From NCBI GenBank assembly GCA_964516515.1, contig CAZEYA010000002.1, positions 1,075-65,074 of the forward strand: a DNA stretch of 64,000 bases, read 5' to 3'. The notes beneath the pieces were generated by a model. It did not search any database. It was not told the origin of the DNA and worked only from the letters and a program-made list of their open reading frames with translations. Position 1 is the first letter of the stretch, and each line of letters starts with the position of its first letter. The DNA comes from an uncultured Kineosporiaceae bacterium (GTDB lineage Bacteria; Actinomycetota; Actinomycetes; Actinomycetales; JBBAYJ01). Both the position numbers and the translations under genes were made by a program. Below, in pieces: positions 35,944-38,420 of the stretch.

Positions 35944-37260
35944 ATGCACGTGCGATCAGTCGAGGCGATGGTGGGGCCGGCTGCCTCTGCTGCCCGGCTG
36001 CGGCTGTTGGCGGGGGACCTCCGGACGACCGCGGCGGTGGTCGGCGGGGTGGGCACACGTCCGTTGGGCGCTGCCGGCCAGTGGCAGGGTCCCGCGGCCG
36101 ACGCGCACCGCCAATGGTCGGATCGGTTCATCCGGGCCTGCGATGGCGTGACGGACGCGGTGATGCTGGCGGCGCAGGCGCTCGACGTCGCGGCTGACGC
36201 GACGGCGCGATCCAGTGGTGTCGTCGCCGAGCTGCGGTCGCAGCTGGACATGGCGACGGTGGCGGCCGACGGGGTCGCCGTGATGGCGGTCTGGGCCCGT
36301 TACGACCAGGTGATGGCGACACAGGACCGGGCGGAGATCACCGCCACCGGCGCGATCGCCCAGACCGAGCGGGCGCTGTCGGGCCTGCGGTTCACCGAAC
36401 CTCGAGTCCTTGGGCTCACCGGGCAGCAATGGCGTGATGTCGGCCGGGGCCTGGGGGATGCCGCGTGGGAGGCGGGCCCGGGTGCGGCGACCTGGGCGCA
36501 GAGATGGTTGACCGTCCCCGGCCTGCTGGGGCTCTACGACCCGCTGGACCAGGCCGAGGACGATGCGCGGGCCTGGCTCGACGAGGCCGGCGGCGGGCGT
36601 GATGACACCGCCACCTATGACTGGGCCTACGGCGGAGTCACGGTCGCCACCATCGCGCTCCCCGTCCCCAGCGGTCGGGCGCGGCTGGCAGTCAAGGGGG
36701 CCGAGCTGGCCGAGGGGGCGGTCGACGCGGGCCGTGGCGCCGATCGGCTGGACGGGTCGATCGGGGGCCTGCGCCAGGCTGGCGAGTCCGGCGGGGCCGG
36801 CCCGACGCTCAGCCCTCGGGCGCAGTCGGCGATCGCCGAATACACCGACGACGGCTACTGGGCGTTGAATCTGGCCCTGCGGTCGGGCTCGGTGGCGCCA
36901 GGGTCGCCCGTGGCGCAGCGGGTGGATGATCTGTCGAAGGCGTTGTCCGAGTTGCCGGCGTATCAGGGCGTGGCCTATCGAGGTACCGATCTTTCAGCGG
37001 GGCAATTGAACAGATACACCCCCGGCGAGGTGGTCCGCGAACCGGCGTTCACCAGTGCCTCGCGAGTGGTCGATGGGGCCTTCCCCGGGAATGCCATTTT
37101 CCGCATTGATTCCACGACGGGAAGAGACGTTTCATCCTACTCAACCATAGCGATGGAAGCGGAAGTCCTCTTTGATCACCGGACTGTGTTTGAAGTGACC
37201 AGACGCCATGTGGACGACAATGGCGTCACCGTCATCTACATGAGAGACTTGGGGCAATGA
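35944..37260 (+). CDS. Polymorphic-toxin-like protein: WXG-like helical N-terminus plus C-terminal C3/Vip2-type (R-S-ExE) ADP-ribosyltransferase domain
   Basis: C-terminal domain: AIAEYTDDGYWALNLALR (the YT..Y..IN..LR NAD-site helix of ADPrib_exo_Tox enzymes), VAYRG (catalytic Arg), FTSAS (STS motif) and MEAEVLF (ExE). N-terminus: helix-turn-helix region with GQWQGPAADAHRQW (W-x-G). Confidence 0.8.
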   Translation: MHVRSVEAMVGPAASAARLRLLAGDLRTTAAVVGGVGTRPLGAAGQWQGPAADAHRQWSDRFIRACDGVTDAVMLAAQALDVAADATARSSGVVAELRSQLDMATVAADGVAVMAVWARYDQVMATQDRAEITATGAIAQTERALSGLRFTEPRVLGLTGQQWRDVGRGLGDAAWEAGPGAATWAQRWLTVPGLLGLYDPLDQAEDDARAWLDEAGGGRDDTATYDWAYGGVTVATIALPVPSGRARLAVKGAELAEGAVDAGRGADRLDGSIGGLRQAGESGGAGPTLSPRAQSAIAEYTDDGYWALNLALRSGSVAPGSPVAQRVDDLSKALSELPAYQGVAYRGTDLSAGQLNRYTPGEVVREPAFTSASRVVDGAFPGNAIFRIDSTTGRDVSSYSTIAMEAEVLFDHRTVFEVTRRHVDDNGVTVIYMRDLGQ

Positions 37261-38420
37261 CAACTCCTGCAGAACGGGAACCCACCGACGCCGCTGGAGC
37301 CGAGCGATTCAAAGGCCCCTTGTCCGTGCGGTTCACGGAGCCGATCGGCGTGGACGCTGACGGCAACGTCCAGCTCATGCGCGACGGCAGGCTGCTGGAG
37401 CCGATGGTCACCGATGAGCAGATGGAGCGCGCGTACGGCGTGCTGATGGGCTTGGTCTGTGGGGACGCTCTCGGCGTGCCGTACGAGTTCGGGCGCCCAC
37501 CCTCGGGCGAACCCGAGATGCTGGGCGGCGGACTGGGCAACTACGAGCCCGGTGAGGGCAGCGACGACTCGCAGATGGCCTTGATCATCGCGGCCGCCGT
37601 GATGAACGGTAGCGACCTGTCGACCGAGGAAGGCCTGGACGACGTCGCGGTCCGCTTCATCGGCTGGGCCAAGCAGGGGCCGCCGGACATCGGCATGCAG
37701 ACGCAGGCCGTGCTGAGCAACGCGGCCGAGCAGCTCACCTTCGAGCCGGGACGGGACGTCACACCCGGCGGCGCGGCCCAGGCCTGTCGACAGGCGGCAT
37801 GGTTCTGGCACGCCGAGACCGGACGGTCGGCCGGCAACGGGGCCCTGATGCGAACGGCACCCGTCGCGCTGTCCTTCCTGCTCGACCCACAGGCGGCTGC
37901 GACGGCCGCCCGGGCGGTCGCGCGGCTGACGCACCATGACAAGCAAGCGGGCGCGACGTGTGTCCTGGTCGGGGAGGCCATTCGGCAAGCGGTCATGAAT
38001 GACGTGTGGGAACCGACCGCGGGGCTGGACCTGCTGGCCCCGGAGGAACGCGATGACGCCGCCCGCTGGCTCGTGGCTGCGCTCGCGGGTTCACCGGCTG
38101 ACTTCGCCGACGAGGGCTACACGGTGCGGACGATGCAGGGGGCCATGGCGGCGGTCCAACTGTCGCGCGGATTGCCCACCGGTGAGAAGCGTTTCCGGGC
38201 AGCCCTGACAGCTGCCGTTCAGTCAGGCGGCGATACCGACACCGTGGCGGCCGTCACCGGGGCGATGGCAGCGGCGCTGGACGGTCACGCCGCGATCGAG
38301 GGTCACTGGCGGGACCTGCTTCATGTTCGAGTGGTCGACGCGTTCGGCATAGAGAACTTCCGCCTGCGCGCCGACGGGCTGTTGCGAATGGCGGGCTGTG
38401 TCGCCGCCGTCTTCGATTGA
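37257..38420 (+). CDS. ADP-ribosylglycohydrolase (DraG/ARH family), candidate cognate immunity protein
   Basis: GDALGVPYEF, GEGSDDSQMAL, GNGALMRTAPV and GGDTDTVAAVTGAMAAAL metal-site motifs. ATG 37257 overlaps the toxin TGA (ATGA). About 55 aa of N-terminal extension precede the ARH core. Confidence 0.9.
   Translation: MTTPAEREPTDAAGAERFKGPLSVRFTEPIGVDADGNVQLMRDGRLLEPMVTDEQMERAYGVLMGLVCGDALGVPYEFGRPPSGEPEMLGGGLGNYEPGEGSDDSQMALIIAAAVMNGSDLSTEEGLDDVAVRFIGWAKQGPPDIGMQTQAVLSNAAEQLTFEPGRDVTPGGAAQACRQAAWFWHAETGRSAGNGALMRTAPVALSFLLDPQAAATAARAVARLTHHDKQAGATCVLVGEAIRQAVMNDVWEPTAGLDLLAPEERDDAARWLVAALAGSPADFADEGYTVRTMQGAMAAVQLSRGLPTGEKRFRAALTAAVQSGGDTDTVAAVTGAMAAALDGHAAIEGHWRDLLHVRVVDAFGIENFRLRADGLLRMAGCVAAVFD

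Follow-up and report, generated by a model that had tools for sequence, protein, structure and literature searches.

The 64,000-nucleotide stretch of contig CAZEYA010000002.1 analysed here (the window), which comes from an uncultured Kineosporiaceae bacterium, carries two overlapping genes that encode a protein with a C-terminal ADP-ribosyltransferase (ART) domain and an ADP-ribosylhydrolase (ARH). This pair is best explained as a polymorphic toxin/immunity module of two genes in a high-GC (guanine plus cytosine) actinobacterium. We are highly confident that the two proteins are a toxin and its immunity protein, and we consider the detailed mechanism proposed below probable. The genes and their parts are as follows (open reading frame, ORF; amino acids, aa; AlphaFold2, AF2; predicted local distance difference test, pLDDT).

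35944..37260, + strand: predicted polymorphic toxin gene, 438 aa, from the ORF listing, with an alternative start at Met9 (nucleotide 35968)
35944..36393, + strand: N-terminal three-helix bundle, residues 1-150 (helices 16-36, 50-106 and 110-146, with a WxG turn), WXG100/PPE-like, a putative export/targeting domain, from AF2, Foldseek and profile searches
36082..36090, + strand: W47-Q-G49 (WxG) turn between helices 1 and 2, from the six-member alignment
36412..36678, + strand: conserved central region, residues ~157-245, with which the constant part of the toxin ends, from the alignment of family members
36679..36810, + strand: variable Gly/Ala/Arg-rich linker, residues 246-289, the constant/variable junction, from the alignment end, pLDDT <50 and a GC content of 0.81
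36811..37257, + strand: C-terminal R-S-ExE ART domain, residues 290-438 (R346, S371/S373, E405/E407), from Pfam, phmmer and Foldseek
37257..37260, + strand: ATGA overlap of toxin stop and hydrolase start (translational coupling), from direct sequence reading
37257..38420, + strand: ADP-ribosyl(arginine)hydrolase of the DraG/ARH family, 387 aa, predicted immunity protein, from PF03747
37257..37406, + strand: hydrolase N-terminal extension, residues 1-50, motif GPxSxRFTEPIG..DG, a candidate toxin-binding element, absent from standalone ARHs

The initial annotation, made from the sequence alone, had described two ORFs, the second starting with an ATG that overlaps the stop codon of the first. Both ORFs, on the + strand, and the overlap were confirmed, and both frames showed the codon-position GC pattern of genuine genes in a genome of ~70% GC. 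The start of the toxin is ambiguous. Some gene calls begin at Met9 and give a protein of 429 aa (P0010, P0011), and a GAGG lies a few bases 5′ of this codon. A protein identical to the toxin was found on 7 metagenome contigs from environmental samples, with the neighbours unchanged.

The C-terminal part of the toxin was assigned to the ART superfamily by two Pfam models. Residues 288-430 matched ADPrib_exo_Tox PF03496 (E=1.1e-11, 44.9 bits, cutoff 23.4), and the toxin also passed the cutoff of ART PF01129 (7e-9, 35.8 bits, cutoff 22.3). The catalytic motifs are YRG with R346, FTSAS at 369-373 and E405-A-E407, and in the phmmer alignment R346, S371/S373 and E405/E407 were in register with the YRG, STS and EAE of Tre1. 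The catalytic set noticed earlier at the C-terminus is thus real. When all PDB sequences were searched with phmmer, the best match of the toxin was Tre1 (chain B of 6DRE/6DRH, 1.3e-13), followed by Vis, XopAI, Listeria Lmo0066 (8ZA7_B) and HopU1. In the AF2 model of the whole toxin, residues 290-438 were confident (pLDDT mostly 68-91). Foldseek of this ART model again placed Tre1 first (TM 0.74-0.77, root-mean-square deviation 2.0 Å, 33% identity), above XopAI, Vis, ExoS/T, 8ZA7_B and C3. ExE-type ARTs usually modify arginine. We infer that the toxin would have an arginine-specific, NAD-dependent activity.

The ART segment also differs in composition from its surroundings. Its GC content (36811-37260) was 0.609 against a window mean of 0.704 (standard deviation 0.03), a value within the lowest 0.3% for windows of 447 bp. 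The remainder was host-like, with 0.74 in the N-terminal two-thirds of the toxin gene and 0.70 in the ARH core. Because the low GC content is confined to the ART segment in this way, it suggests that the cassette was acquired through recombination from a lower-GC source. A word-indexed search with the ART domain returned 2 matches. The nearest ART relatives belong to other toxin architectures. P0017 (L016 4492-7359) is a 955-aa eCIS_core (DUF4157)-ART protein beside an AAA ATPase, and P0008 (L015 187-2097) is an ART of 251 aa whose N-terminus is Pro-rich; a DUF8350 gene overlaps it on the upstream side, and an ORF of 69 aa lies downstream. Neither P0017 nor P0008 is accompanied by an ARH. Judged from composition and architecture, the ART cassette is exchangeable, and it is foreign in composition.

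The downstream protein is an ARH/DraG-family hydrolase, as had been proposed. Residues 61-348 matched ADP_ribosyl_GH PF03747 with an E value of 5.8e-45, so that the profile searches were significant for both members of the pair. The motifs GDALG (69), SDDSQ (102) and GGDTDT (324) all fall on invariant columns of the family alignment, as do the metal-site residues D70, D103/D104, D326 and D328. Since these motifs are invariant among its closest relatives, the hydrolase looks catalytically intact and is predicted to be active. Its matches in the PDB were Thermus 2CWC, Tri1 (6DRE_A, 9.7e-18), DraG and Lmo0067, with 2CWC and Tri1 about equal as the best. We considered whether the hydrolase is a Tri1 orthologue and rejected this assignment. 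It scored 80.5 bits on the Tri1 equivalog model NCBIfam NF041672, whose cutoff is 490, and it is closer to standalone actinobacterial ARHs. Its core (residues ~50-387) shares ~48% identity (~250 bits) with very many ARHs of Actinobacteria, among them Gordonia, Planosporangium and Ornithinimicrobium, and the two contexts of such relatives that we inspected contained no ART neighbour.

Many of the closest ARH homologues are ~480-510 aa long (P0018, P0031, P0053, P0085, P0100 and others), and in several of them a dual-specificity phosphatase domain (PF00782) is found at the C-terminus. Fusions of this ARH-phosphatase type appear to be widespread in Actinobacteria.

The standalone relatives begin at the equivalent of residue ~49, so the first ~50 residues of the hydrolase are an addition. 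An extension of ~55 aa had been noted in the initial annotation; it exists, at a length of about 50 aa. It is confined to toxin-linked ARHs and is partly conserved (GPxSxRFTEPIG..DG) in L006, the only orthologous toxin-linked ARH. On the Tri1 model, only positions 63-342 align with the hydrolase, which indicates that the N-terminal extensions of the two proteins are unrelated in sequence. The ARH core is also much closer to standalone ARHs (250 bits) than to Tri1 (68 bits), and this argues for an independent recruitment of the immunity function. The most economical reading would be that immunity was taken on by a resident ARH lineage, which acquired an extension of its own.

The N-terminal half of the toxin proved to be very rare. 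A word-indexed search of 5.8 billion proteins with the full toxin returned 3 proteins only, namely an identical one, a 53%-identical ART-form orthologue (P0002), and P0003, which matches the N-terminal half only. An exhaustive phmmer search of 1.84 billion cluster representatives with residues 1-287 added only 3 further true relatives (P0004-P0006, E=1e-30 to 1e-13). In the databases searched, the N-terminal module of ~260 aa is therefore known from about six representatives.

The four relatives without an ART (P0003-P0006) are ~490-510 aa long, have residues ~1-245 in common with the toxin and diverge fully after that point. Their C-terminal domain matched the Streptomyces exported alarmone synthetase SaEAS (PDB 8VX3, deposited as 'SaSAS'; 5e-57), and we refer to it as the SYNTH domain. 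P0003-P0006, L007 and L008 represent the SYNTH form, and P0001 and P0002 represent the ART form. In the SYNTH form, an ORF of ~98 aa that is unrelated to the ARH overlaps the end of each toxin gene by 4 bp. In L009, directly 5′ of the sister toxin P0006, a 174-aa SYNTH-like fragment (C-terminal half) at 4845-5646 is followed by a gene for a 94-aa homologue of the 98-aa protein, and together these look like an orphan toxin/immunity cassette. A sister toxin was found in two Kineosporiaceae metagenome-assembled genomes, JBHJOJ01 and JBHJOS01. The constant N-terminus, the alternative C-terminal toxins, the matching alternative downstream genes and the orphan cassettes assign the toxin, on the sequence evidence, to a polymorphic toxin system in the sense defined by Zhang et al. 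in 2012 (PMC3482391). The earlier classification as a secreted toxin/immunity pair is supported by the ART and ARH assignments, and the exchanged toxin and immunity genes of the relatives add that the system is polymorphic.

A sortase gene lies just 3′ of the pair in all SYNTH-type loci (L005 8039-8695; L008 ~11460-12461; L009 8850-9512; L010 11963-12619), but not in the window. This linkage may have a functional meaning, or it may be no more than synteny between closely related loci.

The structure of the constant part was examined with AF2 and profile searches. When residues 1-150 were modelled alone from six sequences, a three-helix bundle was obtained with a pLDDT of 90.2 and a predicted template modelling score of 0.80. 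The WxG loop occupies residues 44-49 of this bundle, and W47 and G49 do not vary across the six family members. The initial annotation had described a helix-turn-helix of ~100 aa around a WxG motif. The WxG motif does lie in a turn between helices, but the unit is actually a three-helix bundle of ~150 aa followed by a conserved central region of ~90 aa. The same annotation had called the N-terminus WXG-like. This is backed by the invariant turn and by weak WXG100 and PPE matches, while Pfam WXG100 PF06013 stayed below its cutoff (16.9 bits against 27.3, E=0.008). WXG100 was likewise sub-threshold in 4/6 family members (best 8.8e-4), and PPE in 1/6 (3.6e-4). With the family profile searched against PDB sequences, the top six matches were all WXG100 proteins (E=0.004-0.045, profile positions 14-110). 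With Foldseek of the bundle, the top nine were all PPE chains (E 0.026-0.6, best probability 0.99), and EspB and EsxB appeared lower down. Every weak match of the bundle thus falls on substrates of type VII secretion systems (T7SS), none of them at a significant level, which suggests a relationship to this group.

The central region is the most conserved part of the family and holds most of the invariant alignment columns, with the pattern LGLTGQQWRD...AWEAGPG...RW..VPG.LG.YDP.D..ENDA.AWL...GGG...Y...LPxPxG. It is 77% identical to the orthologue (omega ~0.10), and the conservation stops at the LPxPxG(K/R) motif. No Pfam or PDB match was found for this region, and its maximum Kyte-Doolittle 19-mer of ~1.2 indicated no hydrophobic segment of transmembrane grade. 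AF2 confidence was low here, and residues 150-285 gave no confident model. The alignment depth for AF2 was limited because the word searches gave only 3 matches with the full toxin and 2 with the ART domain.

The orthologous locus L006 allowed the parts of the module to be compared. The identities were 83% for the TetR-family regulator encoded upstream, 70% for the ARH core, 56% for the ART domain, 47% for toxin residues 1-110 and 47% for the ARH extension. Rough omega values were 0.14 for TetR, 0.18 for the ARH core, 0.32 for the ART, 0.60 for toxin residues 1-150 and 0.72 for the ARH extension; these dN/dS values come from a single locus pair with dS of 0.6-1.5 and are usable as a trend only, because dS is near saturation and one pair was compared. 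In this comparison, evolution is faster in the ART domain and the ARH extension than in the ARH core, which is consistent with an interface at which toxin and immunity protein co-evolve and to which the extension would belong, by analogy with Tri1.

The analysis shows the identities of the domains, the intact motifs, the modular build of the family and the coupling of the genes. From these results we propose the following mechanism. The toxin would consist of a constant N-terminal delivery module (the WxG bundle plus the central region) joined by a variable linker to a C-terminal cassette that can be exchanged. The cassette, a Tre1-like R-S-ExE ART, would act as a toxin: with NAD+ as donor, it would mono-ADP-ribosylate an arginine of an essential protein in the cytoplasm of a competing bacterium. 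The translationally coupled ARH would stay in the cytoplasm of the producer and protect it by freeing the target of ADP-ribose. Binding of the toxin by the lineage-specific extension of ~50 aa is probable as well and may add occlusion to reversal. Export would most likely occur via an ESX/type VII system, with the WXG/PPE-like bundle as the part that is recognised.

We lean slightly towards T7SS export of the toxin, and the case for it is suggestive, not established. In its favour, the WxG bundle consistently resembles T7SS substrates. Inspection of the sequence revealed no Sec/Tat-like N-terminus and no hydrophobic segment of transmembrane grade. Known WXG/LXG-ART toxins, and CpnT with its PE/PPE-like N-terminus and its dependence on ESX-4, are precedents for such export. 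For delivery by a type VI secretion system (T6SS), no PAAR domain was found in the toxin with Pfam, and the host is a Gram-positive-type, high-GC actinobacterium. Several results speak against the proposed account, most of them against its export step. LXG (PF04740) gave no match, and none of WXG100, LXG and PPE (PF00823) exceeded its curated cutoff. All Foldseek matches of the bundle had E>=0.026. The six-member alignment contains no conserved YxxxD/E, and next to the toxin genes of the window, L005, L009 and L010 there is no gene for a small helical partner of the Lap, Tap, PE or EsxEF-like kind. No gene for EccB/C/D, MycP or Esx/WXG100 was found in the 64-kb window, just as had been stated earlier, and no T7SS core gene was found in five related loci (among them L005 and L009-L011), a result that covers these stretches and not the remaining genome. 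As to the immunity side, the hydrolase extension has no similarity to that of Tri1, and only one orthologous ART/ARH locus could be compared, with dS near saturation. The ESX/T7SS-like export suggested in the initial annotation has indirect support from the weak matches, which all point to WXG100/PPE; none exceeds a cutoff, and neither the YxxxD/E signal, nor a partner, nor a nearby T7SS gene goes with them.

The lack of secretion genes or partners near any family member would also suit an intracellular toxin-antitoxin or abortive-infection module of phage defence, in which the ARH antitoxin restrains the ART until infection or stress releases it and the N-terminal domain is a sensor or regulator. 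Toxin-antitoxin modules typically form a tight bicistron of this kind, with 4 bp of overlap, and the alarmone-synthetase domain of the relatives with its small downstream ORF recalls the toxSAS toxin-antitoxin systems (PMC7229694). However, the SYNTH domain of the relatives matches an exported enzyme, SaEAS (5e-57), every weak match of the N-terminus is T7SS-substrate-like, and a constant N-terminus with variable C-termini and an orphan cassette is the polymorphic-toxin pattern. PADLOC matched neither the toxin nor the hydrolase, and the locus lies among core housekeeping genes and not in a defence island. We consider this explanation improbable. We give similarly little credence to a secreted ART exotoxin that uses a non-T7SS route or acts on eukaryotes, like C3, Vis, ExoS and XopAI, with the ARH for self-protection only. 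Tre1, which is antibacterial, was the best match by both sequence and fold, although Vis, XopAI, ExoS/T, HopU1 and C3 were matched as well. Cytoplasmic enzymatic immunity is typical of antibacterial toxins whose target is also present in the producer, and the alarmones made by the sister toxins act on the physiology of bacteria. T7SS linkage was found in no locus, the sources are environmental metagenomes, and the conserved, unexplained central region 157-245 could be another translocation module; on the other hand, the toxin has no recognisable signal peptide or transmembrane segment.

An endogenous switch of reversible ADP-ribosylation on a host protein, like DraT/DraG and perhaps under the adjacent TetR, is still less to be expected. 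The core of the hydrolase comes nearest to standalone ARHs of Actinobacteria, which are widespread and do not lie beside toxins, the TetR-ART-ARH order is kept in the orthologous locus, and the context is core chromosome. We regard this explanation as very unlikely nevertheless, because the pair, with two lineages in the databases, is extremely rare, the family is modular and the ART cassette is foreign in composition. The cassette is also fast-evolving, the N-terminal module occurs on an unrelated toxin type with an unrelated downstream gene, and the nearest ART relatives are cargo of extracellular contractile injection systems and other toxin architectures.

A more far-reaching form of the toxin/immunity account can be offered tentatively, and as a whole it is rather unlikely. 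In this form, the ~260-aa N-terminus would be an undescribed actinobacterial delivery module (a PPE/WXG-like bundle plus a central domain) exported by an ESX-4-type T7SS without a co-encoded partner. The ART would be countered by an ARH recruited independently from an actinobacterial housekeeping lineage, with a convergent occluding extension, so that Tri1-like bifunctional immunity would have arisen a second time.

The neighbourhood of the pair is ordinary core chromosome. The 64-kb window contains the nuo operon, a penicillin-binding protein, transaldolase, a DUF3516 helicase, TetR regulators and a major facilitator superfamily pump. Searched against the window with hidden Markov models of the N-terminal module and the SYNTH domain, the toxin ORF was the sole match, and no further members or orphan cassettes were detected. 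One more gene adjoins the pair.

35226..35849, + strand: TetR-family regulator, immediately 5′ of the toxin, from Pfam TetR_N and TetR_C_11

The order TetR-toxin-ARH is kept in L006, so the adjacency is a conserved neighbourhood. TetR may regulate the toxin/hydrolase pair; scans for promoters, terminators and operators around the TetR and toxin genes gave nothing above chance. On the other side of the TetR gene are a 208-aa protein without a Pfam match (34156-34782, - strand), whose Gly-rich C-terminus ends in GGDFGGGEFGGGEFGGGEF repeats, and an 84-aa ORF beside it (34833-35087, - strand). Both are kept beside the TetR gene on every toxin-carrying contig. A few kb 3′ of the pair, at 41218-43493, an AAA_14/DUF4143 ATPase (+ strand) is followed by a convergent patatin-like phospholipase (- strand), and a link of these genes to the toxin is not evident.

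The closest characterised counterpart of the pair is Tre1/Tri1 of Serratia proteamaculans (PDB 6DRE/6DRH). Tre1 is a T6SS ART effector that modifies an arginine of FtsZ, and Tri1 is a bifunctional ARH immunity protein that reverses the modification and occludes Tre1 via an N-terminal extension. The analogy, which was drawn in the initial annotation as a rewired Tre1/Tri1-like system, is right at the domain level, because Tre1 is the best match of the toxin and Tri1 is among the top matches of the hydrolase. Both toxins have the R-S-ExE set, with Tre1 the best solved ART match (1.3e-13, TM 0.77, 33% identity). In both systems an ARH gene with an intact catalytic site lies directly 3′ of the toxin, and an extension of similar length (~50-60 aa) precedes the ARH core. 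In contrast, delivery here involves a WXG/PPE-like helical bundle instead of PAAR/T6SS, and the host is a Gram-positive actinobacterium. The part of the proposal that did not hold is the hydrolase, which is no rewired Tri1 (80.5 bits against 490 on the Tri1 model). Its extension does not align with that of Tri1, and for its core the standalone ARHs of Actinobacteria are much the nearer relatives (~48% identity, 250 bits, against 68 bits for Tri1).

A second precedent is the catalogue of Zhang et al. (PMC3482391), in which Tox-ART-RSE toxins with T7SS (WXG, LXG) export and Imm-ADP-RGHD immunity were listed. The Listeria monocytogenes pair Lmo0066/Lmo0067 (PDB 8ZA7), from a T7SSb variable region, is of this kind, and both of its proteins were detected as homologues (1.1e-5 and 3.8e-9). 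The present pair resembles these in having an ART-RSE domain on a T7SS-like (WXG/LXG) N-terminus together with a predicted enzymatic ARH immunity protein. However, Imm-ADP-RGHD was listed for acidobacteria, proteobacteria and firmicutes but not for actinobacteria (PMC3482391). Lmo0066/Lmo0067 are encoded beside T7SS genes, whereas the pair here has no T7SS neighbours, and its N-terminal module is below the threshold for Pfam LXG and WXG100.

Actinobacterial T7SS toxins offer a third comparison. CpnT/TNT-IFT of M. tuberculosis (ESX-4 dependent, PE/PPE-like N-terminus) and mycobacterial EatA/TapA1/TapA2/EatI (PMC13444075) share with the present pair the actinobacterial host, a helical N-terminus that is PE/PPE- or WXG-like with low sequence similarity to known families, a C-terminal toxin and an immunity gene directly 3′. 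Both differ in co-encoding small helical partners (EsxE/F; TapA1/A2), as LXG toxins also do, while none was found here, and their toxin activities are NADase and arabinanase with non-enzymatic immunity. The exported alarmone synthetases (EAS) are related through the sister members P0003-P0006, L007 and L008, which carry the SaEAS-like SYNTH domain (PDB 8VX3, 5e-57); in a recent survey, Ahmad et al. (2025) reported 85 EAS proteins with WXG/LXG export domains (PMC12691689). The toxin of the window has an ART in place of SYNTH, and an ARH in place of the 98-aa immunity protein.

The scheme of an ART-RSE toxin with a WXG/LXG N-terminus and an ADP-ribosylglycohydrolase as immunity is already known (PMC3482391), as are the Tre1/Tri1 mechanism and the solved Listeria pair 8ZA7. 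Experimental demonstration of antibacterial T7SS toxins in Actinobacteria is only recent (EatA, 2026; PMC13444075), and no actinobacterial ART/ARH effector-immunity pair was found in the literature searchable for this analysis. The new elements are the actinobacterial setting, a delivery module that has no curated family, about six representatives and no partner genes, and, apparently, an independent origin of an extended ARH immunity protein. The gain is incremental, not conceptual, because the principle was predicted in 2012 and demonstrated for Tre1/Tri1. If the proposed account is true, the toxin would provide a compact delivery domain, free of partners, on which the recognition of toxins by ESX-type systems could be studied, and the hydrolase would offer a test of the repeated evolution of immunity that both reverses damage and plugs the enzyme. 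The toxin would also be a new arginine-specific ART, and its bacterial target could expose a vulnerable step in actinobacterial growth, for which FtsZ and EF-Tu are precedents.

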